Assembly: GCA_017302715.1 (NCBI GenBank)
Contig: JAFLCD010000003.1
Coordinates: 83,154 to 147,153 of the forward strand
Origin: Deltaproteobacteria bacterium
Lineage (GTDB): Bacteria > Bdellovibrionota > UBA2394
Reading direction: 5' to 3'
Length of the DNA: 64,000 bases
A program made the position numbers and the translations under genes. The notes beneath the pieces are model-generated. The model ran no database searches, was not told where the DNA came from, and worked only from the letters and a program-made list of their open reading frames with translations. Shown here in pieces: positions 7,586 to 63,908 of this stretch. Position 1 is the stretch's first letter. Every line of letters starts with the position of its first letter.

Positions 7586-8356
7586 TTGAAAATTCGTCCA
7601 TCGATTGCGTATTCGCTGATTGTCACAGTTCCTAGCATTTTATTTTTTAGTTCTTTAGCTGTTATTTTATATCCACTTGACTGGATCTTTCTTCGTAAGC
7701 GCCAACTTCAGGGCAAATGGGGCGCCACCGTCACCGTCGTAAAATTAGGTTGGGGCTATTGGATGCTCTGGGCGCATGGAATAAAAGTAAAAGTTTCTGG
7801 TCCCGCCGCGCAGGATTTAAAAAAAATGAAGGGCGTTATTTTTGTTCTGAATCACCAAAGTGTGACAGACATCATGACCGTCATTAAAATTCTTCCAAAA
7901 GCTTCAAGTTTTATTTCAAAGAAAGAACTTCGTTCTGTGCCTGTGTTTGGTTGGGCGATGAAAGTTGTGGGGACTCTTTTTGTAGATCGATCTCGGCGCA
8001 CGCAGAATCAAGCGCTCTCTGAAGTAAATGATCTGATGAGAGATGGTTTTAATATTATTATTTTTGCTGAAGGAACGCGTTCGCCGGATGGAAAACTTTT
8101 GCCATTTAAAAGAGGTGCATTTGTGATGGCAATCGAGGCGCAAGTTCCCGTAGTTCCGGTTACGATTTTAGATAGCCGTTTGTGCTGTCCAAAAGGGCAG
8201 TTGGCCATAGCGCCGGGGACCATTCACGTTATCGCTGATAATCCTATCTCGACAAAGGGTCTTAAAATCGAAGATCGGCATCAACTTTCAGACCAAGTTC
8301 GTCATATCATGTTGAAACATCTAGAAAAATTCGAAGAAAATCGTGAAACTAGTTAG
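7586..8356 (+). CDS. plsC: 1-acyl-sn-glycerol-3-phosphate acyltransferase
   Basis: N-terminal membrane anchor, HX4D acyltransferase motif (NHQSVTD) and FAEGTRS motif. Confidence 0.8.
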   Translation: MKIRPSIAYSLIVTVPSILFFSSLAVILYPLDWIFLRKRQLQGKWGATVTVVKLGWGYWMLWAHGIKVKVSGPAAQDLKKMKGVIFVLNHQSVTDIMTVIKILPKASSFISKKELRSVPVFGWAMKVVGTLFVDRSRRTQNQALSEVNDLMRDGFNIIIFAEGTRSPDGKLLPFKRGAFVMAIEAQVPVVPVTILDSRLCCPKGQLAIAPGTIHVIADNPISTKGLKIEDRHQLSDQVRHIMLKHLEKFEENRETS

Positions 8357-12212: not shown

Positions 12213-12216
12213 AAGT

Positions 12217-13146: not shown

Positions 13147-13375
13147 TCGACTCTGAAAAAACTGCAGTTTATAAACACCGTCAAAAAAAATTAGGTGATA
13201 TTTGTCGAGCTACCTAAATCTCTGAATTTGCTTTTTATTTTTTCCATTTTTTCGGATTCGGCACCGCAGCATCGAAAATCTTCAGCGCCCGAAATTGGCG
13301 CAAGTCGTCACAAATTGTCTAATTCGCGCTAAACTAAGGAGTCGCATGATGACCTAAGAGGGGGGTCTTTTCACA

Positions 13376-15091: not shown

Positions 15092-15118
15092 GTTTAATTA
15101 AAGGAAAGTGAGAACACT

Positions 15119-16312: not shown

Positions 16313-16315
16313 TCT

Positions 16316-19119: not shown

Positions 19120-19122
19120 CAC

Positions 19123-20616
19123 ATGAGTGCAAGAATACTTGTCGTCGACGATGAATTAAGCGTACGAGAATTTTTCGAAATTCTTTTAGCTAAAGAGGGT
19201 TATGAAGTCGTTACGGCTTTAGATGGAAGTGATGCCCTTCGGCTTTTGAGAGAACAAAGTTTCGATCTCATCATCAGTGATCTTCAAATGAAGGGCGGAG
19301 ATGGGATGACGTTACTTCGCGAATCTAAAAAATTTCAGAACGAAGTTCCTGTGATTATGATTACCGCTTTTGCAACTACAGATTCAGCAGTTGAAGCAAT
19401 GAAAGCTGGAGCTTTTGATTACGTCAGCAAGCCTTTTAAGATTGAAGAAATTAAAGTGGTGATTCAACGAGCTCTCAATACAAAAACATTGGTCGTTGAA
19501 AATCGAAATTTAAAATCTGAATTGCGCGATAAATATGATTTTTCTAATTTGCTTGGTGAATCTGAGCCAATGAAAAATGTTTACGATCTCATTCGCAAAA
19601 CTTCTCCTACTCGTACCAATGTTTTGATTTGGGGAGAGTCAGGAACGGGTAAGGAGCTTGTGGCCAAAGCCATTCATTTTAATTCTCCTCGAAAAGAAAA
19701 GCCTTTTATGACGGTGAACTGTGGCGCCATTCCTCAAACGTTGATTGAGAGCGAACTTTTTGGTCATGAGAAAGGCTCTTTTACAGGAGCGAGTGCTTTG
19801 AAGGCTGGACTTTTTGAAGCAGCACATAAGGGCACTATCTTCTTGGATGAAATCGGAGAGCTTCCTTTGCCGATGCAAGTAAAATTACTTCGCGTGATCC
19901 AGGAGAGATGTTTTCATCGTGTGGGCGGAACAGAGAGTATTGAAGTGGACGTTCGTATTATCGCGGCCACTAATAAAAACCTCGAAGAAGAAGTCAAAAA
20001 AGGAAACTTTAGAGAAGATTTATTTTATCGATTGAATGTCATTCAGATTCAACTTCCGCCACTTCGGTTGCGAAAAAAAGATATTCCACTTTTGTCGGAG
20101 CATTTTCTTAGAAAATTTGCCAAAGAGACCGGAAAGGATGTTCGTAAAATCAGTCCAAAGGCCATGGAACTTTTAATGGCCTATGATTATTACGGAAACG
20201 TTCGTGAACTCGAAAATATTATCGAGCGCTCTGTTGCTCTTGAACCAGGAAATGAAGTTCAATCTGAATCTTTGCCCGGCAATGTCATTCATCCCGAGCA
20301 AAATCGCGAAAAATTTTCACTCAAAGAAGCCGAACTTCATTTTGATCAGGGTGGAGTAGCTTTAGACAATTTAGTCGATGCATTTGAAAAGGATTTACTT
20401 TTAAAAGCTCTCGATAAATCTCATGGCTCACGTTCTCGCGCAGCTAAACTTTTAGGCATTTCGAGTCGGTCGATGCGATACCGCCTCAAAAAGCACCTTA
20501 TAGGCGGCTACGACGACGAGGACTCCCTACTAGACGTTTCTGTGGATGGGAGCGAAAATGAAGGTGTACTTCGAACAATGAAGCTGGAAGACTTTTCTAA
20601 GGAAGGAAAAGGCTAA
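19123..20616 (+). CDS. pilR: sigma-54-dependent response regulator PilR (NtrC family)
   Basis: Receiver domain with the phospho-acceptor Asp region, AAA+ sigma54-activation domain (GESGTGKELVAKAIH) carrying a GAFTGA-like loop (GSFTGA), and a C-terminal HTH. Confidence 0.85.
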   Translation: MSARILVVDDELSVREFFEILLAKEGYEVVTALDGSDALRLLREQSFDLIISDLQMKGGDGMTLLRESKKFQNEVPVIMITAFATTDSAVEAMKAGAFDYVSKPFKIEEIKVVIQRALNTKTLVVENRNLKSELRDKYDFSNLLGESEPMKNVYDLIRKTSPTRTNVLIWGESGTGKELVAKAIHFNSPRKEKPFMTVNCGAIPQTLIESELFGHEKGSFTGASALKAGLFEAAHKGTIFLDEIGELPLPMQVKLLRVIQERCFHRVGGTESIEVDVRIIAATNKNLEEEVKKGNFREDLFYRLNVIQIQLPPLRLRKKDIPLLSEHFLRKFAKETGKDVRKISPKAMELLMAYDYYGNVRELENIIERSVALEPGNEVQSESLPGNVIHPEQNREKFSLKEAELHFDQGGVALDNLVDAFEKDLLLKALDKSHGSRSRAAKLLGISSRSMRYRLKKHLIGGYDDEDSLLDVSVDGSENEGVLRTMKLEDFSKEGKG

Positions 20617-49256: not shown

Positions 49257-50423
49257 ATGTCAAAAAATGCCAATCAAATTCTCGCCAACCAAATTTTGCA
49301 GCAACTTGCCGATGGACGGTTTAAGGCTGAAGGCCCTTTTGTTGGAATCGATCAATTTTTAGATTCGATTATCGAAAATATTCCCGACATGATTTTTGTA
49401 AAAGATGCCGCTGAGCTTCGTTTTGTTCGGTTTAATAAGGCAGGTGAAGATTTGCTTGGTTACAGTCGCGATCAACTCATCGGAAAAAATGACTATGATT
49501 TTTTTCCTGCCCGAGAAGCTGAGTTTTTTATTCAGAAAGATCGCGAAGTTTTGCATGGAAGAAAATTGGTAGAAATTGCAGAAGAGCCTATTCACACACG
49601 CCTTAAGGGAGCAAGGATTCTGCATACAAAAAAAATTCCTATTTACGATGCCAATGGGGAGCCCGCATATCTTTTAGGAATTTCAGAAGATATCACCGAT
49701 CGAAAGCAAGCCGAGGTAAAGGAGCAACGAAATCGAGAGCTCGAACGATCAAATGCCGAACTCGATCAATTTGCTTCTATTATTGCACATGATCTTCGTG
49801 AACCGATGAGAATGATCTCTATTTATATGAGTCTTTTGCAAAATGAATTTCGCGAAATTATTTCGCCGGTAGCGAAAGAGTATGTAGATTTTGCAATTAA
49901 AGGTACGGCACGAATGAATTCTCTCTTGAAGGATTTACTCGAGTATTCTCAGGCGGGGATTACGAGAGAGCCCATAAAGCCAGTCAACACGATAAAGGTT
50001 TTAAATGATGTCGTTCAAAATTTGACGGCATCGATTGAATCTAAAAACCCTGAAATTGAAATTTCGAATTTACCTAATGTACGCGGAAATTACGGACAAC
50101 TCATTCGCTTGTTTCAAAATCTCATCGAAAATTCTTTAAAGTATTCTGGCCCGCAACCCATCAAAATTCGTGTTTATGCTGAAGAAAGCGATCAAGAATG
50201 GAAATTTTTTGTTCAAGATAACGGCCTTGGCATCGAACCTCGCTACCACGAAAAAATATTTCAGATTTTTCAGCGCTTAAACCCCTCTGATGAAGTTGAA
50301 GGAACAGGTATCGGTCTTTCTATCTGTCGTCGCATTGTCGAAAATCACGGCGGAAAAATCGGCTTATTCTCCGAACTCGGAAAAGGCGCCACTTTCTTTT
50401 TTACGCTACCGAAAGAGATTTAA
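49257..50423 (+). CDS. cytoplasmic PAS-domain sensor histidine kinase
   Basis: PAS region, H-box (ASIIAHDLREPMR), and N/G1/G2 boxes (NLIENSLKYS, DNGLGIEP, GTGIGLSI). Confidence 0.8.
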   Translation: MSKNANQILANQILQQLADGRFKAEGPFVGIDQFLDSIIENIPDMIFVKDAAELRFVRFNKAGEDLLGYSRDQLIGKNDYDFFPAREAEFFIQKDREVLHGRKLVEIAEEPIHTRLKGARILHTKKIPIYDANGEPAYLLGISEDITDRKQAEVKEQRNRELERSNAELDQFASIIAHDLREPMRMISIYMSLLQNEFREIISPVAKEYVDFAIKGTARMNSLLKDLLEYSQAGITREPIKPVNTIKVLNDVVQNLTASIESKNPEIEISNLPNVRGNYGQLIRLFQNLIENSLKYSGPQPIKIRVYAEESDQEWKFFVQDNGLGIEPRYHEKIFQIFQRLNPSDEVEGTGIGLSICRRIVENHGGKIGLFSELGKGATFFFTLPKEI

Positions 50424-50590: not shown

Positions 50591-50677
50591 TGGTGCTCGT
50601 GCCCGGAATCGAACCGGGACGCCCTTGCGGACCCAGGATTTTAAGTCCTGTGCGTCTACCAATTCCGCCACACGAGC
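50591..50677 (-). tRNA. tRNA-Leu (anticodon UAA), type II tRNA with long variable arm, CCA encoded
   Basis: Reverse complement GCTCGTGTGGCGGAATTGGTAGACGCACAGGACTTAAAATCCTGGGTCCGCAAGGGCGTCCCGGTTCGATTCCGGGCACGAGCACCA folds as a cloverleaf: 7-bp acceptor, 3-bp D stem, CAGGA/TCCTG anticodon stem with loop CTTAAAA, and a TTCGATT T-loop. Confidence 0.85.
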
Positions 50678-50732: not shown

Positions 50733-53201
50733 CTATTTAAACTTACCCATCAATCTTAAGGTCACGGGCAGCAAGATCAGCGCTGAAGCCAAGCAGGTGA
50801 ATTCACCGATGATGGCCAACGTAGCAAAGCTTACGAGGGCCTGATTAGAGGCGCCGAGGAGGGTGTAGTAGCCGATGATGGTAGTCAAAGAACAAAGAAA
50901 AACTGCGGCTCCCGAAGTTGATAGAATTTTTCCAAAATTTTTGTAGTTATCTTGTCGACATCTCAAAAAAACATTAATCGGATAATCCACGCCGATTCCA
51001 AAAGTGAGCGGCAGCGCAATGAAATTGAAAAAATTATATTTCAAATCCATAAATCCCTGAATGCCGAGCATCCACCAGGTTGCGACGCAAAGTAAAAATC
51101 CCATCATGATGCCGCTGCCTAAACTGCCCGCTAAAAAAATCGCCGTGATGATGACGCCTAAAAAAGCGATCGCAGAAATAACAGGAGCATCTCTTTTTAA
51201 ACCACGCAAAAGATCCGCCAGAATAAAACTTTCACCCGATGCCTGCACCACCGTCTTTGTTTTTGGCAGTTCGATGCGTTGCAAGCTCGCCGTGTAATTT
51301 AAAAGATTAATTCCATCGTTTAAAGGTTTGTCAGAATCTGGATTTACAAAAGCAATGTATCCTGTTCGCCCATCTTTTTCTGAAAATCTTCGCGCAAGTT
51401 GAGGCGGCAATTCTTTAATCTGTGGCGGATCAAGCTTCATATTCTCACGAATATTTTTAGCCATTTCTTTTTGTTCCGAATGTTTGAGTGCCGGATCGCT
51501 TAAAAGTTTTTTCACTTTTAGCATCTCAGTCTGTCGATCTTTTAAGTCAGGAGTATTTTTGGGAAGTAAATCATAAAGACTCGCGCAAGATTTGATGACA
51601 TTTTTTTCAGGAGATAGTGAAGCCGAAAGTTTTGTGATCGCTGGGCAGAATTCTTCAGCCTGTTCGAGTGAATCAAGCATCACCACAGAAGGAGTCATGC
51701 TGGATGAAAAAACTTTATGAATTCTTCTTTCTACGGCCTCCGTTCCTTCGGTGAGGGCGACTTTGTTTCGTAAATTGTCAAAATTATATTCGATGGGATC
51801 TTTAATGAGGCGAAAAAAACCTATACCAGCGATGAGAGAAGCTAGAATTAACAAACTAGCTATGAATTGAGGGTGTTTGGTTAAATAATTTCCAAAAGCT
51901 CTCACAGATTTAGAAAAATATTTCTCAAGTGGATTGGCATAATTTTTAACCGGCCATCGAAGCTCAAGTTGATAGAGCCAAAGTGGAAGAAGTGAATAAG
52001 CAGCTATCCAACAAAGCGCAATTCCTAAACATCCAATAAAACCAAATTGAGAAAGTCCTTTGTTGTCGGCAAAGAGCAAACTTAAAAAAGCGACCACCGT
52101 TGTAATTGAAGCGATTAAAGTTGCTGTGCACGTTGCACCAATCGATTGTTCAATAGCCTCGCGCGCCGAAACTTTTTCTTTTCTCAGCTCGAGATAGCGA
52201 GAAATCAGAATCACTCCGTAGTTGATACCGGTTCCGACGACCAGGCTTCCTAAAAAAGCAGTTTGTGTATTTAAATAGCCGATATGTAATTTGGTTATTC
52301 CAAAAGTCCAAGCCACTGCGAACATAAGATTCACAATTAAAAGCGCGATCGTTCTAAACGACCAAAAAAATAAAAAGACAACTGAAAGAATCAGCGCGAC
52401 TAACAAAAGTGCGGTGTCGATGATGTCACTTCGAATTGTATTAAATTCATAAATCGCGCTTTGCACGCTTCCGGCTAAGTTGACCTTCATCTCTGGATGA
52501 AAAGATTTTGGATCGAGCTCATCGATCATGTTCTGAATTTGCTTTGTAAGTTCAACGCTTCCGCTGAATCCTAAGCTGCTTCCGAGGGGTCGTAGCGAAA
52601 GAACCATTATTTTTCCTTCGTCTGCACTTAAGTAGGCATCTCGGTATTTTAAAAACATTTGCAATCGCGGATCGACTCGCTCAATGGGGCTCAATTTTTT
52701 TTCTGAAGATTCATTTTTGTCGCCCTCATCTAAGCCAAGACCAATCGCAGAATCTTTTGCTGTCGCAATTTCATCCTCGATTTCAGCTTCAAATTTCTTT
52801 AATTCTTCGAGCCCGAGATAATGCAATCCATACTTATGAATAAAATCTTGAACGTCTTGGTAGCGATATTCAAAAAATCGGAGAGATTTTCCAACGAGAG
52901 GTTGAAGTTTTGTCGCTAAAGCTTCTGTGAACTTACGATTGCTTTCGTATTCAGGGCCTTCGATTCCTACAAGAAGCAATCCCGTTCCACCGATTCGCTC
53001 GCCAGCTTTTTTTAATGAAACAACACTCGAAAGTTTTTCGGGTAGAAGTTCTGCGAAATCTGTTCGAAGTTGCAGTCCTGTAGCAACCCAAACGCTAAGT
53101 GCAGTGATTATAAAAATAAATAAGTTGAGCGCTATTCGATGACGATAGAGCCAATCAAAATAAACTTTAGCCGATCGAATTTTCGAATTCTTAAACAGCA
53201 T
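50733..53201 (-). CDS. MMPL/RND-superfamily membrane transporter (two 6-TM bundles with large periplasmic loops)
   Basis: 822 aa with an N-terminal TM helix, a large loop, a 5-6-TM cluster, a second large loop and a second TM cluster. This is the MMPL/HpnN-like sterol-sensing-domain architecture. Confidence 0.7.
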   Translation of the reverse strand: MLFKNSKIRSAKVYFDWLYRHRIALNLFIFIITALSVWVATGLQLRTDFAELLPEKLSSVVSLKKAGERIGGTGLLLVGIEGPEYESNRKFTEALATKLQPLVGKSLRFFEYRYQDVQDFIHKYGLHYLGLEELKKFEAEIEDEIATAKDSAIGLGLDEGDKNESSEKKLSPIERVDPRLQMFLKYRDAYLSADEGKIMVLSLRPLGSSLGFSGSVELTKQIQNMIDELDPKSFHPEMKVNLAGSVQSAIYEFNTIRSDIIDTALLLVALILSVVFLFFWSFRTIALLIVNLMFAVAWTFGITKLHIGYLNTQTAFLGSLVVGTGINYGVILISRYLELRKEKVSAREAIEQSIGATCTATLIASITTVVAFLSLLFADNKGLSQFGFIGCLGIALCWIAAYSLLPLWLYQLELRWPVKNYANPLEKYFSKSVRAFGNYLTKHPQFIASLLILASLIAGIGFFRLIKDPIEYNFDNLRNKVALTEGTEAVERRIHKVFSSSMTPSVVMLDSLEQAEEFCPAITKLSASLSPEKNVIKSCASLYDLLPKNTPDLKDRQTEMLKVKKLLSDPALKHSEQKEMAKNIRENMKLDPPQIKELPPQLARRFSEKDGRTGYIAFVNPDSDKPLNDGINLLNYTASLQRIELPKTKTVVQASGESFILADLLRGLKRDAPVISAIAFLGVIITAIFLAGSLGSGIMMGFLLCVATWWMLGIQGFMDLKYNFFNFIALPLTFGIGVDYPINVFLRCRQDNYKNFGKILSTSGAAVFLCSLTTIIGYYTLLGASNQALVSFATLAIIGEFTCLASALILLPVTLRLMGKFK

Positions 53202-53396: not shown

Positions 53397-55670
53397 ATGA
53401 GTAAAGAGATGAATATTATAGAATTTGAACTTCCTGCCTTTGGTCGAATGGCTGCATCTAAATTGCGTGAAACTCCGCAAGTTTCAGACATTATCAATTC
53501 TTTATCTCAACCCATTATTGCTCTCGATAGGCGCTTACATGTGACTGCGATTAATAAAGCTTTTCACGAAGCTTTTTTTCTGTGGACAGGTGTTCGTCTT
53601 TATCTCGGCATGAATTATTTAGAAGTTCTTCCTAAAGAAGTTGTTCCTGAGCGTTTAACTTTTTATCGCCGCGCATTTTCAGGCGAAGGATTTTCTTTAG
53701 AACAGGATTATAATTTGGCCGGAGAAATTCATACATTTCTCGTAACTTATGATCCTATTTATTCTGGCGGCGAGGTCATCGGAATCATTGGAAGCGCAAA
53801 AGACATTACCGAACAAAAGTTAATCGAAAAAAGTTTAAGAGAAGCTAATTTAAAATTTGAAAATTCTTTTAGGTTTAATTCAGTAGGGATGGCGTTGATC
53901 GAACCCACTGGCCAATTTTTAAAAGCAAATGCGACGCTTTGTAAAATGCTCGGCTATTCAGAAGAAGAAATGAAAACAAAATCATTTCCGATGATTACTC
54001 ATCCAGAAGATTTAGAAAAAAGTTTTGATATTTTTCAGAGACTTGTAAAGGGCGAGCTTGAATGGGCTCACATCGAAAAAAGATATCTTCATAAGTCGGG
54101 CAAAGTTATTCAGGCAATTTTAAGTTCTTCATTCGTTCGTGAAGAAGATGGAACGCCTCTTTATTTTATCTCAGTCGTTCAGGATATTTCGGAACGTAAA
54201 CGTGCCGAAGATGAATTGTTAAATAGCGAGCGACGCGTCGTCAATATGATGAAAGTAGCTCCAGTTGGAATTTATCAAACGGATGTCGAGCGAGATTGTA
54301 TCTATGTCAATGATCGATGGTGTGAGTTGACGGGACTTTCTTCTCAAGAGGTGACCGGAAACTCTTGGATTAAATCTGTTTATCAAGAAGATGTCCGAGA
54401 TGTAGAGCAAGAGCTCAAGCGATGCCAAGAATCGAAAGATGTATTTTCTTTAGAATATCGACTGCGCAAATCGACAGGTGAAATTACTTGGGTGCACGGA
54501 CGAGAAATTCCGCTCCGAGATGAAAAGGGAGCTTTGGTTGGCTATATGGGAGCCATTCAAGATATTTCTAAAATTAAAGAGGCTGAAAAAGTTCGCGAAA
54601 GACTTATCTATATATTAGATGCCACGCCTGACATCGTAGGCATCTTTGATATTCATGGAAAAAGTATTTATCTCAATGAAGCTGCGCGAGAGGTTTTGGG
54701 ATTAGATGCAGATGATTTAGATGTTGGACAAACAAGTTGGGAGATGTATCCGACTTGGGCCGAAGAACTTATTCGCAATCAAGGAATTCCCGCTGCTTCT
54801 CGCGATGGTTTTTGGAAAGGCGAAACTTCAATTATTCATCACGATGGACGTGAGATTCCGCTCTCTCAAATTATTTTAGCTCACAAAAATAAAGATGGAG
54901 TTGTTGAATATTTTTCAACCATTGGTCGAGATATGTCGCGACAAAAAGAATTTATGGCAGAGCTTGCAAGATCAAATACTGAGCTCGAGCAATTTGCTTA
55001 CGTTGCTTCTCATGATTTGCAAGAACCTCTGCGGATGATTGTCAGTTATTTGCAGTTTTTAGATTTGGAATATCGCGAGCAATTAAGTCCTGAAGCAGAT
55101 GAATATTTGCACTTCGCGGTCAACGGCGCGAAGAGAATGAGCAGACTGATTAAAGATCTTTTAACTTATTCCAAAGTAGGCCGTAGCGAATTTAAAACGA
55201 AAAGTGTCGATTGCGGAGCTATTTTAGATGTCGTTCAAGAGCAACTTCGCACCATGATTCAACAGGCTGAAGGATTGGTTGAAGTCGGACCATTGCCAAC
55301 AGTGAATGCAGATGAATCTCAGTTGATGAGACTTTTTCAAAACTTAATGGAGAATGCGATTAAATATAGAGGAAAAATTTCTCCCAAAGTCAAAGTGAGC
55401 GCTCATCAACAATCTGGAAAATGGGTTTTCTGTGTTTCAGATAATGGTCGCGGTTTTGAAATGAAAGATGTGAATAGAATTTTTAGACTCTTTCAGCGTT
55501 TGCATGATCGAGAAGAATATCCTGGTAGTGGAATTGGTCTGGCCATCGCGAAGTCTATTGTAGAACGCCACGGTGGAAAAATTTGGGCGGAATCTAAAGT
55601 AAATGAAGGCTCGAATTTTTATTTTACACTTTCTGATTGTATGGCAGCCGAGAAGGAACTTGTGAGATGA
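53397..55670 (+). CDS. multi-PAS sensor histidine kinase (cytoplasmic)
   Basis: 757 aa with several PAS/PAC repeats, H-box (ASHDLQEPLRM), and N/G1/G2 boxes (NLMENAIKYR, DNGRGFE, GSGIGLAIA). Confidence 0.85.
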   Translation: MSKEMNIIEFELPAFGRMAASKLRETPQVSDIINSLSQPIIALDRRLHVTAINKAFHEAFFLWTGVRLYLGMNYLEVLPKEVVPERLTFYRRAFSGEGFSLEQDYNLAGEIHTFLVTYDPIYSGGEVIGIIGSAKDITEQKLIEKSLREANLKFENSFRFNSVGMALIEPTGQFLKANATLCKMLGYSEEEMKTKSFPMITHPEDLEKSFDIFQRLVKGELEWAHIEKRYLHKSGKVIQAILSSSFVREEDGTPLYFISVVQDISERKRAEDELLNSERRVVNMMKVAPVGIYQTDVERDCIYVNDRWCELTGLSSQEVTGNSWIKSVYQEDVRDVEQELKRCQESKDVFSLEYRLRKSTGEITWVHGREIPLRDEKGALVGYMGAIQDISKIKEAEKVRERLIYILDATPDIVGIFDIHGKSIYLNEAAREVLGLDADDLDVGQTSWEMYPTWAEELIRNQGIPAASRDGFWKGETSIIHHDGREIPLSQIILAHKNKDGVVEYFSTIGRDMSRQKEFMAELARSNTELEQFAYVASHDLQEPLRMIVSYLQFLDLEYREQLSPEADEYLHFAVNGAKRMSRLIKDLLTYSKVGRSEFKTKSVDCGAILDVVQEQLRTMIQQAEGLVEVGPLPTVNADESQLMRLFQNLMENAIKYRGKISPKVKVSAHQQSGKWVFCVSDNGRGFEMKDVNRIFRLFQRLHDREEYPGSGIGLAIAKSIVERHGGKIWAESKVNEGSNFYFTLSDCMAAEKELVR

Positions 55671-56110
55671 CCCCATCTGGAAGGCATATTTTACTAGTCG
55701 AAGACAATTTGGCAGATGCCAAATTGGCTATGAAAATTTTAAATCAATCGGCAGAAATTGAGCGCGTTCATCATGTAACGGATGGTGATCAAGCGATGAA
55801 TTTTCTCAATCGAGTGGACGCATTTGTAGAAGCCCCGATTCCAGATTTGATAATTTTAGATTTAAATTTGCCGCGCCGAGGTGGTCGGGAAATTTTAAAA
55901 GAAATAAAAGAGAATCCAAGGTTTCAACAGATTCCAGTCGTCATTTTGACGTCTTCAGATTCCGAAAGCGATGTGATGGCTTGCTTGCGTTTGCATGCAA
56001 ATGCCTATGTCACAAAGGCTTTAGATCTTTTTCAATTTGTTGAAGTTTTACATTCTTTAGAAAAATTTTGGCTAGTGTCTGCAAAACTGCCAATGAAATC
56101 GAGTCAATGA
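55667..56110 (+). CDS. single-domain response regulator (CheY/Rcp1-like receiver)
   Basis: ILLVEDNLADAKL...DLIILDLNLP...T..IPVVILTSS...K: a receiver fold with no output domain. ATGA overlap with the kinase stop. Confidence 0.8.
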   Translation: MTPSGRHILLVEDNLADAKLAMKILNQSAEIERVHHVTDGDQAMNFLNRVDAFVEAPIPDLIILDLNLPRRGGREILKEIKENPRFQQIPVVILTSSDSESDVMACLRLHANAYVTKALDLFQFVEVLHSLEKFWLVSAKLPMKSSQ

Positions 56111-56865
56111 TGAGCGATCAAATTTACACACAACAACTTCTCTTGGTTGAAGATAATCCTGGCGATGCTTTTTTAGTGAAAAAATATTTGTCAGCGCAAA
56201 ATACGAATCGTTTTGAGATTACGCATGTGACTCATCTCGCAGCTGCGATAGATGCTCTCCAATCAAAAGCTTTCTATGCCATTCTTTTAGATCTCTCCCT
56301 CCCTGATTCGCAGGGACTTGAAACTATCCGTCAGATCGCCAAACTTTTTCCTAAAGTTCCTGTCGTCGTTATGACAGGCCTTGATGATGAAGCTACAAGC
56401 ATGAATGCACTCAAAGAAGGTGCACAAGATTATCTATTTAAGTCTGAGAGAGATTTGGTAAATCTTGAGCGCTCCATTAAATATGCGGTGGAGAGAAATC
56501 GTATTCAAGAATCTAAAATTGAAGCAGGCATTCGAAATCGTGAAGGTAGTGCCGAAACCATGACGTCTGTTCAGAGTGGTAACCTTAAATTAAATCTTAT
56601 CAATCAAACGGTAAGCATTACTCATAATGAGCAATCGCAAACATTTGATTTGCCACCTCGGGAATTTAAACTTTTATTTTTTCTTATTAAAAATGAAGGA
56701 AAATCAGTTACTCGTTCCGAAATTTTAAATCATGTATGGAGTGATGAGGGCTCTAAGCCAAATCCTCGATGTATCGATACACTTATTAGCTCTCTTAAGA
56801 AGAAGTCAGACTTTTTTGGAAAACGAATCGAGTCCATTTACGGTACTGGTTATAAATTTATTTAA
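56107..56865 (+). CDS. response regulator, receiver + long linker + OmpR/PhoB-type winged-helix DNA-binding domain
   Basis: Receiver (LLLVEDNPGDAFL...ILLDLSLPDSQG...VPVVVMTG), then a linker of about 60 aa, then trans_reg_C-like TFDLPPREFKLLFFLIKNEGKSVTRSEILNHVW...RCIDTLISSLKKK...IYGTGYKF. Confidence 0.7.
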   Translation: MMSDQIYTQQLLLVEDNPGDAFLVKKYLSAQNTNRFEITHVTHLAAAIDALQSKAFYAILLDLSLPDSQGLETIRQIAKLFPKVPVVVMTGLDDEATSMNALKEGAQDYLFKSERDLVNLERSIKYAVERNRIQESKIEAGIRNREGSAETMTSVQSGNLKLNLINQTVSITHNEQSQTFDLPPREFKLLFFLIKNEGKSVTRSEILNHVWSDEGSKPNPRCIDTLISSLKKKSDFFGKRIESIYGTGYKFI

Positions 56866-57029
56866 TTTATTAACATTTAATAAAATTTAAATTGCGAGTG
56901 ATTTTAAGTACATAAACTTTAGTTAGATGAGCCAATTTCTGGGCGATTTCACTCGACAAGATTTCTAATTTTGCGATCTTAAATTAAACATAGGGTTAGT
57001 TCGTTCGTATCATCGAGAAGGGATAAATT

Positions 57030-58892
57030 ATGGCTGCAGAATATTCAAAAGAAGTTTCCAGCGTAATGGGATTGCATGTTGAGGGTTCTTCTACAAAATC
57101 GGCGAGACCGATTTTGATTTTACTTATCGAAGACCGATTACCTGACGCAAAATTATTTCAGAAAATTTTATCTCAAGCAGGAGACGCAGATCGTTACTGG
57201 TTGATTCATGTAAAAAGATTATCGGTTGCTCTTCGAATGCTTGAGCGCGAGAGAGTCGATGTCGTCATGCTCGATTTAACTTTGCCTGACAGTCATGGCC
57301 TTGGCGCAATCGAATCGATTCGCAGTGTTACACCTGGTTTGCCGATTGTTGTTCTTACCGGTTTAGAGGATGATTCGGTTGGAGTGGATGCGCTCAAAAA
57401 AGGTGCGCAGGATTATCTTTTAAAAGATTCTATTACGGCAGAAAGTTTATCTGCCTCGATCAAGCATGCAATTGAAAGACAAAAACTTTGGTCTAATCTC
57501 GAAGACGAACTTCAAAAAGAACGCTATGTTTCTGATTTTGATGAGCTTACAAAATTAGCAAGCCGCCAACTTTATGAAACGAGATTAGAGTACGCACTTG
57601 AGCAAGCTCACAGAGAGTCCAAGGTGGTTGGCATCTTTTTTATGGATGTGAATGGTTTTCGTAAAGTGAACGAAGACTTTGGTTCTCAGGCGGGGGACTA
57701 TGTTCTTAAAACAGTTTCGGATCGTTTGAGTAAGCTCGTTCGAAAAAACGATACAGTGTCTCGATACGGAGATGATAAATTCGCTCTGACTTTATACGAT
57801 ATTCGCGATGCGGATTCTGCCGCAAAGGTTGCAAAAAAGATTTTGCAATTATTTTCTGAGCCAGTCTTGTGGCAAGATCAAATCATTTCATTAACAGCAA
57901 GCCTCGGGATATCCGTATATCCTGCAGATGATCTTCGAATGAATCGGCTCCTAGGGGCTGCAGAGGCTTCACTCTATCAAGCAAAAGCTCAGGGAAAAAA
58001 TACATATGCCTTTTTTTCAAGACTTTTAAATTTAAAAATTAATGAGTCCAATTTGCTCGAAATAAAACTGAAAGAGGCAATAGAGACAAAAAATTTAAAA
58101 GTTTCTTATTCACCTCTTTTCAATTTGAGTTCTAGGACGGTGAGAGGTTTTGCAGCAAAAATTGAATTTTTAGATTTAGAATTAGAAAACGCTTCAAAAT
58201 CTCAATTGATTTCCTTGGCCGATCAGGCCGCATTAATTCCTGAAATGAATCGATGGTTGTTAAGATCTGTTTGTGGACAAATTGTGGAACTTTATAAATC
58301 TGGCTTTCCAAAAACGATGATGTCTTTGCGGTTATATCCTGAGCAACTTCATCATCCAGATTTCATCGAGAGTGTTAGATCCGCTTTGGCAGAATTTTCT
58401 TTAGAGCCTAGTTTGTTACACTTTGATTTTTCTGAGAGTGTAATTCCAGAGCGCGGAAGTGAGAGAGCCCCTGAAAGAATGGATGAAATTTTAGAACGTT
58501 TAAGTGAAATTGGGGTTCGTTTAAATCTGTGTGATTATGGAGTAGGTCACTCATCATTAACCTATCTGACTCACCTTCGAAAATTTGCGTTGGATGCTAT
58601 TAAGATCCCGCCAACACTTATCCACAAACTCAATCGCTCTAAAGAAGCGCGTGATTTAGTGGAATCCGCGATCGCGATTGCTCACCAAATGAGATTGAAA
58701 GTGATGGCAGAAGGTGTTGATCAGCAAGATTTATTAAGAAAGCTTGAAGAGCTTGGTTGTGATGAGGCTCATGGATCAGAACTCGGAGAAAATCTTCACT
58801 CCGAGTCTATTCCAGAGTTTCTTCAAAGAGAGATTGCAAAACTTTCTGATCAAATTCCTGAGAAATATACTCATCCCGGTCTTTCGACTTGA
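57030..58892 (+). CDS. response-regulator receiver - GGDEF - EAL protein with degenerate GGDEF (RYGDDKF) and degenerate EAL motifs
   Basis: Receiver (ILLIEDRLPDAKLF..VVMLDLTLPDSHG), GGDEF domain with RYGDDKF in place of RxGGDEF, and an EAL domain where the EAL triad position reads AAK and DDFGTGYSS reads CDYGVGHSS. The C-terminal EGVDQQDLLRKLEELGCDEAHG region is retained. Confidence 0.8.
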   Translation: MAAEYSKEVSSVMGLHVEGSSTKSARPILILLIEDRLPDAKLFQKILSQAGDADRYWLIHVKRLSVALRMLERERVDVVMLDLTLPDSHGLGAIESIRSVTPGLPIVVLTGLEDDSVGVDALKKGAQDYLLKDSITAESLSASIKHAIERQKLWSNLEDELQKERYVSDFDELTKLASRQLYETRLEYALEQAHRESKVVGIFFMDVNGFRKVNEDFGSQAGDYVLKTVSDRLSKLVRKNDTVSRYGDDKFALTLYDIRDADSAAKVAKKILQLFSEPVLWQDQIISLTASLGISVYPADDLRMNRLLGAAEASLYQAKAQGKNTYAFFSRLLNLKINESNLLEIKLKEAIETKNLKVSYSPLFNLSSRTVRGFAAKIEFLDLELENASKSQLISLADQAALIPEMNRWLLRSVCGQIVELYKSGFPKTMMSLRLYPEQLHHPDFIESVRSALAEFSLEPSLLHFDFSESVIPERGSERAPERMDEILERLSEIGVRLNLCDYGVGHSSLTYLTHLRKFALDAIKIPPTLIHKLNRSKEARDLVESAIAIAHQMRLKVMAEGVDQQDLLRKLEELGCDEAHGSELGENLHSESIPEFLQREIAKLSDQIPEKYTHPGLST

Positions 58893-58923: not shown

Positions 58924-60078
58924 ATGAGGGTTGGCGTTTTAAGTGATAGCAGTGATCGTTCGTCTCAAATTTCTGAAACTAGAGTCGCGGCAACGCCCGA
59001 TTCGGTAAAAAAATTAAAAAAATTGGGTTTGGATGTAGCGATTGAAAGTGGAGCTGGTCTTAAGGCTGGTTTTTCGGATGACTTATATAAAGCTCAAGGA
59101 GCTGAAATTTTATCGGCTTCTGATATTTTTAAATCAGATATTCTTTTAAAAGTTCATCGACCGAATGATTCTGAAATTTCTCAGATTAAATCCAAATCCA
59201 CGCTCATTTGTTTGAGCGATCCTTATTCAGGCGCTGAAAATTTTTTTGATAAGTTAGCTAAGCAAAATATCAACGCGTTTGCGATGGAGTTGATTCCGCG
59301 TACAACACGCGCGCAATCGATGGATGTGCTTTCTTCTCAAGCAAACATCGCTGGTTATCGCGCGGTGATCGAAGCTTGCTCTCATTACGGAAGATTTTCT
59401 TCGATGATGATGACGTCAGCGGGGATGGCAAAGCCCGCAAAAGTTTTAGTATTGGGTGTAGGCGTAGCAGGATTGCAAGCCATTGCAACGGCCAAGAGAC
59501 TCGGTGGCGTTGTAGAAGCTTTTGATGTGCGAGCTGCCGTGAAGGAGCAAGTTCTCTCGCTTGGCGCAAAATTTTTAGAACTTAATTTGGGTGAAGAAGG
59601 TTCGGGAACGGGTGGTTATGCCAAAGAACTTTCTGAAGCAGGTAAGAAGAAACAAATGGAATTGCTCACTCAAGAAATAAAAAGATTTGATTGGGTGATT
59701 TCGACAGCGAATATTCCCGGAAGAAAAGCTCCTGTTTTAATTACAGAAGAAGCACTTAAAGGAATGCGACCTGGCTCGGTGATCGTTGATATGGCTGCGC
59801 AAAACGGGGGCAATTGCCCTCTGACCGAAGCCAATAAAACAGTGACGAAATATGGTGTGACTCTCATCGGAGTGACCAATTTTCCTGCGTTAGTTCCTAC
59901 GGATTCGAGTGCGTTTTATTCTAATAATTTAGTGAATCTTTTATCTCTGATGGTGAAGCCAAAAGATGGCAAAGCCGAATTTAATATAGATATGAAGGAC
60001 GATATTTTAGAAGCCTCGTTGGTAGTTCAGGCAGGAGAAAATTCTGGAAGCATTCGATTTGGAAAGAAGGTGAGTTGA
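58924..60078 (+). CDS. pntAA: NAD(P) transhydrogenase subunit alpha part 1 (dI, NAD(H)-binding)
   Basis: AlaDH/PNT N- and C-domains with a Rossmann motif ([13 protein letters not shown]). Followed by pntAB and pntB. Confidence 0.85.
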
Positions 60079-60368
60079 TGTCAGATACGATGGTCGGAGT
60101 TTATGTTTTTATTCTTTCTTGCTTCGTAGGATATCACGTGATTTGGGGAGTAACGCCTGCACTTCACACTCCTTTGATGGCGGTTACGAATGCAATCAGT
60201 GCGATCGTTATTGTAGGCGCCATTTTAGTTTCTGGTGCAAATTCTTCTTCATTTGGAGTTTTTGAAGTTGTTGGTTTTTTTGCAGTAGTTTTAGCGGCCA
60301 TTAATATTTTTGGTGGCTTTGTCGTTACAAATCGAATGCTCAGCATGTTTAAGAAGAAGAAATCCTAA
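60075..60368 (+). CDS. pntAB: NAD(P) transhydrogenase subunit alpha part 2 (membrane)
   Basis: 97 aa with three TM helices. ATGA overlap with pntAA. Confidence 0.8.
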
Positions 60369-60369
60369 A

Positions 60370-61752
60370 ATGAATCCTGATATTTTTTCTCTCATTTATT
60401 TAGTCGCAACTATTCTTTTTATTTTTGGCTTGAAGGGGCTGAGTTCTCCAAAGACAGCTCTTCAAGGAAATTTTTCTGCGATGCTTGGTATGGCGATCGC
60501 TGTTGTCGCTACACTTTGTCAGCCCGAAGTAAAAAATTATGAATGGATTATCGCAGGAATCGTAGTGGGCGGCGTGATCGGAATTGTCGTCGCACAGAAA
60601 ATTAGCATGACGGCCATGCCTCAATTGGTTGCTGCGCTTCACAGTTTCGTTGGGCTTTCTGCAGTGCTTGTTGCGGTGGGAACTTTTCAAACGCATTTAA
60701 ATGGATCGCATATGAATGGGGTTTTAGCTTTGGAGCTAGGGCTCGGAGCGGTGATCGGCGCGATTACATTTTCGGGATCTGTTATAGCGTTTGGAAAACT
60801 ACAGGCGATTTTTACATCTAATCCACTCGTCTTTAAAGGACAGCATTTTTTAAATTTAGTTTTGGGAATTTTTATTCTCGTTGGACTCGTTCAGTTTATT
60901 TATGAGCCATCGTGGATGCCTTTTTTGGTGATCACAGGAGTTTCTTTCTTATTGGGATTTTTGTTGGTTCTGCCAATCGGTGGTGCCGATATGCCCGTGA
61001 TTGTTTCGATGTTGAATTCTTATTCGGGTTGGGCTGCTTCGGCGACGGGATTTACTTTAAATAATCAACTTTTGATCGCGACAGGCGCGCTTGTCGGAAG
61101 CTCCGGCGCGATTCTTTCTTATATTATGTGTCATGCGATGAATCGCTCTTTCATTTCTGTGATTCTCGGTGGTTTTGGTGGAGATGCAGCTGCGGCGGCT
61201 GTAACTTCTTCGGCAGGAAAAAATGTAAAATCAGCTGCGTCTGAAGACGTCGCTTTTGTTTTAGAAAATTCTTCGAAGGTAATTATTATTCCTGGTTACG
61301 GAATGGCTGTAGCTCAGGCTCAGCACGTGATTCGCGAAATTTATGATTTGCTTCACGAAAAGGGAGTCGATGTTCGTTTTGCGATTCATCCTGTGGCGGG
61401 GCGTATGCCCGGGCATATGAATGTGCTTTTAGCTGAAGCTGAAATTCCTTATGATTGCGTTTTTGAAATGGATGAAATCAATTCTGAATTTTCGACAACC
61501 GATGTCGCGTATGTGATTGGAGCGAATGATGTCGTTAATCCGGATGCAAAAAATAATAAGACAAGTCCGCTCTATGGAATGCCGATCTTGGATGTTTTTA
61601 AAGCAAAACAAATTTTTGTCTCTAAGCGATCCATGGGTGTGGGTTACGCGGGCGTAGATAATTCGCTTTTCTATTATGACAATTGTTCGTTGGTGTTTGG
61701 TGATGCCAAGGTAACTTGCGAAAAAATTCTTACCGCTTTGAAGAGCTCTTAA
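60370..61752 (+). CDS. pntB: NAD(P) transhydrogenase subunit beta
   Basis: Start at MNPDIFSLIY two nucleotides after the pntAB stop. Multi-TM N-terminus and a C-terminal dIII NADP(H)-binding domain (GYGMAVAQAQH, ...GANDVVNP). Confidence 0.9.
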   Translation: MNPDIFSLIYLVATILFIFGLKGLSSPKTALQGNFSAMLGMAIAVVATLCQPEVKNYEWIIAGIVVGGVIGIVVAQKISMTAMPQLVAALHSFVGLSAVLVAVGTFQTHLNGSHMNGVLALELGLGAVIGAITFSGSVIAFGKLQAIFTSNPLVFKGQHFLNLVLGIFILVGLVQFIYEPSWMPFLVITGVSFLLGFLLVLPIGGADMPVIVSMLNSYSGWAASATGFTLNNQLLIATGALVGSSGAILSYIMCHAMNRSFISVILGGFGGDAAAAAVTSSAGKNVKSAASEDVAFVLENSSKVIIIPGYGMAVAQAQHVIREIYDLLHEKGVDVRFAIHPVAGRMPGHMNVLLAEAEIPYDCVFEMDEINSEFSTTDVAYVIGANDVVNPDAKNNKTSPLYGMPILDVFKAKQIFVSKRSMGVGYAGVDNSLFYYDNCSLVFGDAKVTCEKILTALKSS

Positions 61753-62692
61753 AAAATTCGTAAGCACCTAAGACAGTCAGCCCCGTAAACAGAGGCAAAA
61801 TATAATAGATTAATCTGAAGACTAGTAAGCTTCCTAAAATTTCTGGTCTCGAAATATTTTCAGATAAAAATCTAACAATCAAAGCTTCAAAAATTCCTAA
61901 GCCTCCTGGGACGTGGCTAATTAAACCTACAATCTGCGCTAAAATAAAAATCTGTAGGATTTGAAGAAAATCCATTCCGTGTCCGGCGGGTAAAAGCACA
62001 AAAAAAACAGATGCCGCCAATATCCAATCCACAGAAGATGCGGCGATTTGTCCCGCGGCCATCTGAGGTGTTGGGATTGGAATATTCCACGAGCCCAAAG
62101 GAACAGGCTTTTTTCTATAAAAAACAAAGACTAAAAAAAGTAGAGTGACGGCGAGTGAAATAAATCCAAGAGGAAGTGTGGTGTGGCCTTCTAAAAATCC
62201 GATCCCGGCCAAACTGACAGGCTCATAGAAAAAAATAATTGCTCCAATAAAAGCAATTCCTGTCCAGCAGGTGACATTGGTGAAAGCGACTACTTTGGCG
62301 GCGTTGAGAGCAGAAATTTTCCAGCGCGAATAAAAGCGGTAACGCATGGAAGTCCCTGTAATAATGGGCCAACCCAAATTATTACTGAACGAATAACCCA
62401 AAAAAGAAGAGATCACGAGACGGCCAAACGAAAGTTTTTGTTTGATATAGTGAAGTGCGAGTGCGTCGTAAGCGGTGAGAGCAAAATAACAAAGATAGGT
62501 AAGAGCAATCGCTAAAAAAATTTGAGTCGAAGTAAAATCATTCAAATGAGCGAGTAGCGTGTCGAGAGTATAGTGATGAAGCTCTCGATAAAGCACGAAC
62601 ATGGCCGCGAAGAAAAAAACAATGGGCAAAATACGCGGCGTCCACTTGCTGATCCATTCCTTCATTCGCGTTAGATTAGCCTTAAACGCCAA
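61730..62692 (-). CDS. UPF0104 / lysylphosphatidylglycerol-synthase-TM-like (flippase-like) membrane protein
   Basis: 320 aa with about 8 TM helices. Resembles the LPG_synthase_TM/UPF0104 family (e.g. YRELHHYT, FLGYSFSNNLG). Confidence 0.5.
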   Translation of the reverse strand: MAFKANLTRMKEWISKWTPRILPIVFFFAAMFVLYRELHHYTLDTLLAHLNDFTSTQIFLAIALTYLCYFALTAYDALALHYIKQKLSFGRLVISSFLGYSFSNNLGWPIITGTSMRYRFYSRWKISALNAAKVVAFTNVTCWTGIAFIGAIIFFYEPVSLAGIGFLEGHTTLPLGFISLAVTLLFLVFVFYRKKPVPLGSWNIPIPTPQMAAGQIAASSVDWILAASVFFVLLPAGHGMDFLQILQIFILAQIVGLISHVPGGLGIFEALIVRFLSENISRPEILGSLLVFRLIYYILPLFTGLTVLGAYEFFKSSSKR

Positions 62693-62780: not shown

Positions 62781-63908
62781 ATGAAAAAAACCTATTTCAG
62801 AGCTGGTGGAGATAAGGCAGAGCCTTTCTCACCGAATTGGTTAAATATTTCTTTTGTCGTTCCTATTCACTTAGCAGGTTTATTAGCTTGGCCCATTTAT
62901 GTGGCGATGGGCGGCGGAATCCAGTGGCAAGAATGTGCAGCTTTCGTTTTCATGTTTGCCCTCGGCGCGATTGGCGTTGATGTCGGCTATCATCGCGGTT
63001 TTTCTCATTTAAGTTTTAAGATGTCGACGCCACTTAAAATTCTCGCGCTATTTGGCGGCGCTTCTGTGGCTGAAGGTTCTGTTTTAACTTGGTGTTCGGA
63101 TCATCGTAGACATCATAAATTTCAAGATACAGATCAAGACCCTTACAATATTAAACGCGGTTTTTGGTGGGCGCATATCGGTTGGATTTTTGGAAACGCT
63201 ACCACTACCAATTTTGCAAACTGCCCCGATCTTGAAAGAGACCCTTGGATTAGAAATCAGCACAAATATTATATTTGGTGGTTACTCGTTTCGAGTTTTT
63301 TACTTCCGTTAGGAATTGGATTTTTACTCGGCCGACCACTCGCAACTTTTTTATTCGCAGGTCTTACGCGATTGATGTTCATCGATCATTGTACATTCTT
63401 GATTAATTCTTATGCTCATTATTTTGGTCGCCGACCTTACTCGACTGAAATCACAGCGAGAGATTCTTTAATTTGTGCTCTGCTTGCTCAAGGTGAGGGC
63501 TGGCATAATTTTCATCATCGTTTTCCTTGGGATTACAGAAATGGTCATCGCTTCTATCATTATGATCCAACCAAATGGTTTATTTATTTTGGACAGTTCT
63601 TGGGACTTACAAGAAATTTAAAAGTAACTCCGGCTCCAGAAATTTATCGAGCTAGAATTCAGACCTTAAAGGGAAAGGTTCAAAGCGATTGCCCGAAATT
63701 TTCAAAGGTTTCTGAATCTTTAGATGCAGCACTTTTAAAATGGCATCATCTTTCGATGGAATGGCAGTCATTTAAAAATGGCATCGGACATGCTGGTTCA
63801 GAGCAGATGCAGCAGATTGCCAAAAATCTTGAAGAGGCGAAGCAAGATTTTAAAGAAAAGTTTAACGAGTGGCGAGTCGCTCACCGTTCTCAGCCTTCGA
63901 TCGCTTAA
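62781..63908 (+). CDS. acyl-CoA (delta-9-type) fatty-acid desaturase with C-terminal extension
   Basis: His boxes HRGFSH, HRRHHKF and HNFHHRFPWDY in membrane-desaturase spacing; about 100-aa hydrophilic C-terminal tail. Confidence 0.8.
   Translation: MKKTYFRAGGDKAEPFSPNWLNISFVVPIHLAGLLAWPIYVAMGGGIQWQECAAFVFMFALGAIGVDVGYHRGFSHLSFKMSTPLKILALFGGASVAEGSVLTWCSDHRRHHKFQDTDQDPYNIKRGFWWAHIGWIFGNATTTNFANCPDLERDPWIRNQHKYYIWWLLVSSFLLPLGIGFLLGRPLATFLFAGLTRLMFIDHCTFLINSYAHYFGRRPYSTEITARDSLICALLAQGEGWHNFHHRFPWDYRNGHRFYHYDPTKWFIYFGQFLGLTRNLKVTPAPEIYRARIQTLKGKVQSDCPKFSKVSESLDAALLKWHHLSMEWQSFKNGIGHAGSEQMQQIAKNLEEAKQDFKEKFNEWRVAHRSQPSIA

Follow-up and report, generated by a model that had tools for sequence, protein, structure and literature searches.

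We examined a 64,000-nucleotide (nt) window of a Deltaproteobacteria bacterium genome (Bdellovibrionota; UBA2394; GenBank assembly GCA_017302715.1, contig JAFLCD010000003.1, positions 83,154 to 147,153), and coordinates given here count from its first letter. The subject is a four-gene signaling cluster that begins with a histidine kinase at 53397 and ends with a gene at 57030. The product of this last gene (here, the 57030 protein) joins a receiver (REC) domain to a GGDEF domain and an EAL domain, both with degenerate catalytic sites. The cluster and the parts of its last protein are as follows.

53397..55670, + strand: sensor histidine kinase, 757 amino acids, cytoplasmic; four PAS stretches, HisKA and HATPase_c (Pfam)
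55667..56110, + strand: Rcp1-like single-domain receiver, 147 amino acids; Response_reg only, 1.2e-19 (Pfam)
56107..56865, + strand: OmpR/PhoB-family response regulator, 252 amino acids; Response_reg 5.3e-19, winged-helix Trans_reg_C 3.4e-15 (Pfam)
56866..57029, no strand: AT-rich intergenic spacer of 164 nt preceding the last gene
57030..58892, + strand: REC-GGDEF-EAL protein with degenerate GGDEF and EAL domains, 620 amino acids, NCBI MBN8554753.1; Response_reg 5.6e-16, GGDEF 1.4e-39, EAL 5.1e-45 (Pfam)
57105..57479, + strand: its receiver domain, residues 26-150; phospho-acceptor D82 at 57273-57275
57438..57536, + strand: long helix, residues 137-169, from receiver helix 5 into the GGDEF domain (DSSP on the structural model)
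57534..58013, + strand: degenerate GGDEF domain, residues 169-328; GDDKF at 57768-57782
57741..57752, + strand: I-site RxxD, reading RKND, residues 238-241, five residues before the GGDEF position
58062..58799, + strand: degenerate EAL domain, residues 345-590; AAKIE at 58152-58166, CDYGVGHSS at 58530-58556

An earlier note on this DNA had placed a multi-PAS kinase, overlapping receiver genes, a REC-OmpR protein and a REC-GGDEF-EAL protein at the same coordinates. Open reading frames (ORFs) and Pfam agree with that layout, and the 164-nt gap that it reported before 57030 is exact. The stop and start codons overlap as ATGA at both the kinase/Rcp1-like and the Rcp1-like/OmpR-family junctions. 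The NCBI annotation (MBN8554749-54) gives identical starts for all three response regulators. The start of the kinase is in doubt because the exact 757-amino-acid sequence is absent from the NCBI record; the true start may be the downstream ATG at 53409, which is preceded by AAAGAG.

We set the register of the catalytic motifs by residue-by-residue HMMER alignment to the GGDEF-EAL unit of PA0575 (5m3c) and to MorA (4rnh), and a cross-check in multiple alignments with 19 to 29 relatives gave the same result. In the GGDEF domain, RYGDDKF lies opposite RLGGDEF, with G369 replaced by Asp and the catalytic E371 by Lys, and the signature of active cyclases (PleD E370/E371) is missing. In the EAL domain, GFAAKIEF lies opposite GxEALxRW. 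Loop 6, DFG(T/A)GYSS in active enzymes, is also altered (LCDYGVGHSS opposite iDDFGTGYSS) and is followed by a clade-specific two-residue insertion; further landmarks are DFSE (58425-58436), KIP (58602-58610) and AEGVD (58707-58721). The EAL A-site consists, in RocR numbering, of E175, N233, E265, E268, D295, K316 and E352, and the cyclic di-GMP (c-di-GMP) contact residues are Q161, R179, D296 and D318 (PMC2952852). The 57030 protein keeps three of the seven metal or catalytic residues (E469, K525 and E561), the others being replaced by A375, R434, D466 and C501, and it keeps one of the four contacts (D502, equivalent to D296). The changes include N233 to Arg (R434), E265 to Asp, D295 to Cys, D318 to Pro, Q161 to Ser, R179 to Glu and Q372 to His (H581).

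The RYGDDKF, AAK and CDYGVGHSS readings of the earlier note thus came out the same in the HMMER and multiple alignments, and the mis-alignment that it had named as a possible error was not found against 5m3c or 4rnh. It had described a replaced "catalytic Glu triad": the AAK replacement stands, but an EAL domain has a single catalytic Glu rather than a triad, and the loss, although correctly listed as far as it went, is wider than the note had listed. The protein fails the published A-site sequence criteria for both GGDEF and EAL domains, as its predicted inactivity in both directions implied, because G369 is Asp and E371 is Lys in the one and only three of the seven residues survive in the other. 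These criteria exclude a conventional cyclase or phosphodiesterase. The window protein does have all four GTP-contact residues, D206, N214, D223 and R245, which we take to be PleD D327, N335, D344 and R366. This numbering, like that of K270 below, is provisional: it follows a BLAST alignment to PleD and is consistent with the other alignments.

The receiver is intact. The window protein and all four of its orthologs (see below) have the response-regulator residues E34, D35, D82, T110 and K132; D82 and K132 are invariant in 20 of 20 aligned sequences, and E34, D35 and T110 (Thr or Ser) are nearly so. An AlphaFold2 model built on a 30-sequence alignment has a mean predicted local distance difference test score of 87.8, with all three domains folded. 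In this model, helix 137-169 is a stalk of the DgcR/PleD/WspR type, and residues 26-325 (receiver, linker and GGDEF domain) are colinear with DgcR (6zxm, E=9.6e-33). The EAL fold is preserved: Foldseek aligned this part with the active enzymes BifA, MorA, MucR and TBD1265 at template modeling scores of 0.88-0.92 and root-mean-square deviations of 2.0-2.9 Å, and PA0575 was the best match to the GGDEF-EAL unit (E=1.5e-38).

Orthologs were recovered from Logan assemblies by protein search (P0002, P0003, P0007 and P0016, at loci L004 to L007), L004 and L005 being in assemblies of uncultured bacteria. Scanning genome contigs with the 57030 protein returned distant paralogs only, at 25-29% identity and without orthologs, from metagenome-assembled genomes (MAGs) of Gammaproteobacteria, Thermoleophilia and Parvularculaceae. 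The protein itself forms a singleton cluster whose next relative is 38% identical. Comparison of the loci brings in the genes that flank the cluster in the window:

50733..53201, - strand: MMPL/RND-type transporter, divergent, conserved upstream neighbor; Pfam MMPL 1.3e-30
58924-61752, + strand: pntAA-pntAB-pntB (proton-translocating transhydrogenase), starting 31 nt past the stop codon of the 57030 gene
61730..62692, - strand: LPG_synthase_TM-family membrane protein, conserved downstream neighbor; Pfam 33.1 bits, cut-off 33.4 bits

L004 and L005 carry, in order, an MMPL gene (-), a PAS histidine kinase, a receiver, a REC-OmpR regulator, a spacer, the doubly degenerate REC-GGDEF-EAL gene and an LPG_synthase_TM gene (-). 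The spacer occupies the same place in both and measures 140-208 nt. The shorter contigs L006 and L007 hold the downstream end only, that is, the REC-GGDEF-EAL and LPG_synthase_TM genes. In all four loci, the LPG_synthase_TM gene directly follows the ortholog and is 46-47% identical to its window counterpart. The window has the same frame as L004 and L005 except that pntAA/AB/B is inserted before the LPG_synthase_TM gene. Identities to L004 and L005 are 50-56% for the kinase (over the shared parts), 52-58% for the first receiver, 51% for the OmpR-family regulator, 57% for the MMPL protein and 36% for the REC-GGDEF-EAL protein.

The positional orthologs are doubly degenerate in four of four cases. 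Their GGDEF motifs read NDNTF, DENTL, HSDTL and NSDTL; their EAL domains retain two of the seven catalytic residues and none of the four contacts, and all of their GTP contacts are lost except R366. They share with the window protein the derived receiver string IEDRLxDAKLFQK...DAxRYWLIH, RKND at the I-site and the two-residue insertion after loop 6. Judged from these sequences, the catalytic loss is old and stable in the clade.

Constraint on the protein is uneven. Between the window protein and the orthologs, identity is 58-64% in the receiver, 31-34% in the GGDEF domain and 22-29% in the EAL domain, and the invariant positions number 65 of 125, 34 of 160 and 25 of 246, respectively. The invariant GGDEF residues are RKND, R245, K270 and the strings EQAxRESK and GKN. 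The EAL domain has its own clade-specific conserved features, namely, an SSLT(Y/Q)L.HL insertion, H442, P481-x-R483 and H515, all of them outside the catalytic set. The proportion of nonsynonymous differences (pN) in the closest pair, L005/L006, which is the only pair with a usable and still rough ratio to synonymous differences (pS), was 0.056 in the receiver, 0.122 in the GGDEF domain and 0.185 in the EAL domain, with pS at 0.65-0.73. Because pN lies far under pS in this pair, all three domains are under purifying selection, which weakens toward the C terminus. We rejected a pseudogene or decaying relic, since none of the five reading frames is broken, every domain folds, and pN is far lower than pS.

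Among the nucleotide sites, the I-site stands out. RKND and K270 are invariant in five of five clade members, so that the protein carries the RxxD motif of PopA- and PelD-type receptors. The middle residues of RxxD are fixed as KN in the clade and vary freely in catalytically intact relatives. K270 (57837-57839) stands at what we take to be the position of PleD R390. Dead GGDEF domains that keep RxxD act as c-di-GMP receptors in PopA and PelD (PMC10333796, PMC2952852), and dead EAL domains sense c-di-GMP through ExLxR in FimX and LapD (PMC10333796, PMC6637768). Sensing of the FimX/LapD kind is unlikely here because ExLxR reads AxKxE and one of the four contacts survives in the window protein (none of four in the orthologs).

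We favor, with a probability of roughly 55%, the reading that the 57030 protein is an enzymatically dead, phosphorylation-gated adaptor that would sense c-di-GMP, if at all, through its I-site and not through its EAL site. The receiver would function as a phospho-acceptor, its phosphoryl groups most probably coming from the adjacent PAS kinase, which probably phosphorylates the Rcp1-like receiver and the OmpR-family regulator too. In the REC-stalk-GGDEF family to which DgcR belongs, phosphorylation re-packs the dimer and the stalk, as established by structural work. Phosphorylation of D82 would be expected to re-pack the receiver dimer and helix 137-169 as in DgcR, PleD and WspR, and this would change the presentation of the dead GGDEF and EAL domains rather than any catalysis, with protein-protein interaction as the output. 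The I-site (R238, D241 and K270) appears to be the only nucleotide site kept by selection; c-di-GMP, if read, would for this reason be read by the PopA/PelD route, which would combine the kinase signal with the c-di-GMP level.

The kinase partner, the binding of c-di-GMP and the nature of the output are all features that we infer from sequence. Phosphorylation of D82 by the adjacent kinase is consistent with an identical DHp helix 1, class-specific receiver helices alpha1 and a shared DAKLxxK(I/V)L (see below), and the arrangement of three receivers with one kinase is consistent with the four genes being kept together at 36-58% identity. The earlier note had suggested a branched phosphorelay; because no Hpt protein is present, a branched one-to-three, one-step phosphotransfer is the better description. 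Its three-way proposal for the 57030 protein (sensor, scaffold or phospho-sink) can be narrowed: EAL-type sensing is unlikely, and a pure sink is disfavored by the purifying selection.

Several points weigh against this reading. RxxD is also found in nearly all catalytically intact relatives, and its retention could reflect inheritance or structural need rather than selection for binding. K270 is Lys and not Arg, and its equivalence to PleD R390 is provisional, depending on the BLAST alignment. The synonymous rate (dS) is saturated in every pair and undefined (NaN) in most, so the ratios of nonsynonymous to synonymous rates are rough, upper-bound-type estimates. The 57030 gene lies 140-208 nt from the kinase operon and probably has its own promoter, which leaves co-regulation and cognate pairing less than certain. 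No candidate for an interaction partner emerged. Finally, degenerate GGDEF domains of hybrid proteins that keep the I-site are few, a small minority (PMC2952852).

The main rival is a c-di-GMP-independent scaffold, in which the dead tandem is a receiver-gated module for protein or RNA interaction, like YdiV, BluF/YcgF or CsrD, and RxxD is a leftover. We regard it as a possible explanation, clearly less probable than the adaptor with an I-site; a pure sink and residual activity are less likely still. The dismantled nucleotide pocket of the EAL domain, down to one contact in the window protein and none in the orthologs, fits a scaffold well, as do the clade-specific conserved EAL features outside the catalytic set. 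Most EAL domains without an A-site also lose c-di-GMP binding and gain other roles (PMC2952852), and CsrD is listed as "no binding" (PMC10333796). What a leftover RxxD does not readily account for is the I-site itself: RKND, including its normally variable middle residues, and K270 are invariant although the other GGDEF nucleotide machinery of the orthologs is lost, a pattern that use of the I-site would explain more easily.

A phosphate sink or competitor, in which the receiver drains phosphoryl groups and so shapes OmpR-family signaling with the C-terminal 470 residues as baggage, seems improbable. The receiver is by far the best-conserved domain (invariant positions: 65 of 125, as opposed to 34 of 160 in GGDEF and 25 of 246 in EAL), one kinase faces three intact receivers, and the whole protein evolves faster than its neighbors (36% identity against 46-58%), all of which speaks for a sink. 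Yet pN in the GGDEF and EAL domains of the closest pair (0.12 and 0.19) is far under a pS of about 0.7, and full-length, confidently folding domains have been kept though the orthologs share only 22-34% identity there; sequence of no consequence would have suffered truncation or frameshifts. The module, moreover, already holds a single-domain receiver able to serve as a sink. Residual or unconventional enzyme activity, or GTP sensing as in PdeA/CC3396, is very improbable: the window protein keeps the four GTP contacts (D206, N214, D223 and R245) and EAL residues E268, K316 and E352, and its sister P0121 also reads GGDKF, but the catalytic Glu is Lys and G369 is Asp, the EAL domain lacks E175, N233, E265 and D295, all needed for metal binding (PMC2952852), the four orthologs lack the D327, N335 and D344 contacts so that this is no conserved function of the clade, and, with the EAL domain dead, GTP would have no obvious target of regulation.

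Beyond the adaptor reading, a more speculative and rather unlikely version would make the clade a class of coincidence detector not described before: a true, phosphorylatable response regulator with the GGDEF I-site as its sole remaining nucleotide site, which would need kinase input and c-di-GMP at the same time before its re-purposed dead EAL surface became exposed. A new partner, perhaps one tied to the conserved flanking envelope and lipid genes (MMPL and LPG_synthase_TM), would then bind this surface. If true, a GGDEF-EAL hybrid at a one-kinase, three-receiver branch point would be sensing in the manner of PopA. Elsewhere in the window, a type IV pilus block (13376-20616, + strand) encodes a PilB-like ATPase with an N-terminal MshEN, a PilT-like ATPase and PilC/T2SSF, together with a PAS histidine kinase and a REC-sigma54-HTH regulator (PilS/PilR-like). 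MshEN is a known c-di-GMP-binding module, and the MshEN-bearing PilB-like ATPase suggests that c-di-GMP has real targets in the organism; it is a candidate output.

Comparison with characterized proteins places the 57030 protein within the dead GGDEF-EAL class. FimX (Pseudomonas aeruginosa, Xanthomonas) and Filp (Xanthomonas oryzae) also combine an N-terminal receiver with a doubly degenerate GGDEF-EAL tandem and are non-enzymatic signaling proteins that work through contacts with other proteins (PMC6637768, PMC10333796). They bind c-di-GMP through the EAL ExLxR, whereas the window protein reads AxKxE and has lost three of the four contacts; they also carry a PAS domain between the receiver and the degenerate tandem, which the window protein lacks. 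The FimX receiver is not known to have a phospho-acceptor Asp. The window protein, by contrast, has D82 and its partner residues in place and a kinase gene beside its own, and it resembles FimX only weakly in sequence (7lkq, E=6e-16, compared with 2.5e-61 for PA0575).

PopA (Caulobacter, two receivers and a degenerate GGDEF domain) and PelD share with the window protein a dead A-site with RxxD five residues ahead of it (PMC2952852, PMC10333796). PopA has N-terminal receivers, as the window protein does. Both lack an EAL domain and have demonstrated c-di-GMP binding, whereas the window protein has a degenerate EAL domain and a predicted I-site with Lys at the R390 position. LapD (a receptor) and CsrD (a c-di-GMP-independent factor) have a doubly degenerate tandem like that of the window protein (Foldseek, LapD, E=7e-23), but they are membrane anchored with HAMP domains, and the window protein has neither transmembrane nor HAMP parts; LapD binds through the EAL site that the window protein has lost. 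DgcR (Leptospira), PleD and WspR share the REC-long helix-GGDEF layout and RxxD but are active cyclases with GGEEF or GGDEF, against GDDKF and an appended dead EAL domain here. LapD, CsrD, DibA, PleD and DgcR were rejected as equivalogs on NCBIfam whole-protein scores far under the curated cut-offs (score/cut-off: DibA 279/980, LapD 87/1020, CsrD 95/663, PleD 146/474, DgcR 124/500).

A small minority of hybrid GGDEF-EAL proteins lack both sites (PMC2952852), and a literature search on "REC-GGDEF-EAL" found no description of a doubly dead, phosphorylatable example. The 57030 protein is therefore best described as a rare variant of an established class (FimX, Filp, LapD and CsrD), not a new kind. 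Three features are not found together in the characterized examples: an intact phospho-acceptor with a neighboring kinase, an I-site in a hybrid protein, and a dismantled EAL pocket. The general view of c-di-GMP signaling is unchanged because enzymatically dead GGDEF-EAL proteins are already established. If I-site binding were confirmed, hybrid proteins could be said to become PopA-type receptors, and the cluster would offer a tractable one-kinase, three-receiver system for the partitioning of phosphoryl flow.

The clade is rare. An exhaustive profile search of 1.84 billion representatives (50% clusters) returned it as two entries, at 1015 and 939 bits, and the next match scored 421 bits. The next tier (P0121-P0124 and P0004) carries the receiver signature DAxRYWLxH and shows intermediate states, with the EAL Glu replaced by Gln or His and the GGDEF motif intact or reading GGDKF or GYDEF. 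Applying the published criteria to the 266 nearest relatives, we found both sites kept in 205, EAL-only loss in 26, GGDEF-only loss in 25 and loss of both in 10. These 10 comprise the five clade members, two sister proteins and three marginal cases (AGDEF, with 5-6 of 7 EAL residues).

Locus L008, from the same sample as L004, holds a paralogous cluster with two tandem REC-GGDEF-EAL genes, P0004 at 10001-11875 and a second gene at 11872-13521 (+), which adjoin a different kinase/receiver/hybrid-kinase/Hpt/OmpR cluster. The second gene is independently doubly degenerate: it reads EQNRF, has a 9-residue deletion in the GTP-binding region, and its EAL motif reads KIL, whereas R..D is kept and the receiver is intact. 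Because this degeneration is independent and the receiver is again intact, catalytic loss with retention of the receiver is, on sequence comparison, recurrent in this lineage. The series runs from intact enzymes through proteins with the EAL Glu alone replaced (Gln or His) and one GGDKF protein to the doubly dead clade. The value of the system lies in this clean natural example of stepwise enzyme loss, with the receiver and the I-site under strong constraint throughout. About 35 uncultured relatives match RF3 of the window at 65-81% identity, among them a Bradymonadales bacterium MAG at 65%.

The kinase has all of its boxes intact (H-box SHDLQEPLR at residue 538, N-box NLMENAIKY at 649, G1 DNGRGF at 682 and G2 GSGIGL at 710). 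It has 757 amino acids and four PAS domains, against 513 amino acids and two PAS domains in the L004 and L005 orthologs; an extra stretch of approximately 240 residues (about residues 271-511) is equivalent to two PAS domains, and the two N-terminal PAS domains and the HisKA-HATPase core align with the orthologs. DHp helix 1 (FAYVASHDLQEPLRMIVSYLQFLDLEY) is identical across the three kinase orthologs. The phospho-acceptor residues are intact in all three receivers of the cluster. In helix alpha1, DAKLxxK(I/V)L is common to the first and third receivers, and each receiver class keeps its own alpha1.

The label "Rcp1-like" given in the earlier note is borne out for the first receiver, whose best PDB sequence match was Rcp1 (1i3c, E=3e-33), followed by RcpA (1k68, 6.8e-33). 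It has the D/D/T/K motifs (VEDN, ILDLNLP, ILTSS and YVTKA) and is of the Rcp1 type, being a stand-alone receiver encoded directly after a kinase. The likeness to Cph1-Rcp1 pairs lies in the kinase H-box SHDLQEPLR and the translationally coupled Rcp1-like receiver; the GAF/PHY photosensory module of the Cph1 phytochrome is absent from the window kinase, whose input comes through four PAS domains. The OmpR-family regulator (56107-56865) reached no NCBIfam equivalog cut-off. An orphan PAS histidine kinase of 388 amino acids, without an adjoining response regulator, is encoded at 49257-50423 (+). Its H-box region (AHDLREPMRMI...) marks it as a paralog of the 53397 kinase with several DHp positions different, and neither L004 nor L005 has it at the equivalent place. 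This orphan may feed a second signal into the three receivers.

The spacer contains a weak sigma-70-like site (TAAACA-17-TATCAT at 56985-57013), a consensus match only, and a ribosome-binding site, AAGGGA, lies 7 nt upstream of the ATG at 57030. A promoter and terminator scan of the 164-nt gap found no terminator, and promoter-like sites were fewer than in shuffled controls. No convincing shared operator was seen in an alignment of the spacer (five loci) or of the MMPL-kinase divergent region (three loci), the window spacer showed no sequence conservation with its counterparts, and a repeat search of these two regions returned short AT-rich chance matches only. Two loci, L005 (about 7880-7930) and L006 (the corresponding part of 1-195), have a GC-rich hairpin (CCCCCCTT...GGGG(A/G)G) and then a T-rich run downstream of the OmpR-family gene, ahead of the dead GGDEF-EAL gene; none was seen in the window. 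This hairpin looks like an intrinsic terminator, which would suggest that the last gene is transcribed separately.

An Rfam search of the whole window gave one tRNA as its sole match and no riboswitch near the cluster; the tRNA gene (50594-50677, - strand) has the orphan PAS kinase on one side and the MMPL gene on the other. Synteny alone suggests a functional tie of the MMPL transporter to the module. At the other end, an ORF of 375 amino acids (62781-63908, + strand), which had no Pfam match at E<=1e-5, carries the histidine boxes HRGFSH, HRRHH and HNFHH typical of membrane fatty-acid desaturases. It adjoins the LPG_synthase_TM gene and adds a lipid or envelope flavor to the neighborhood.

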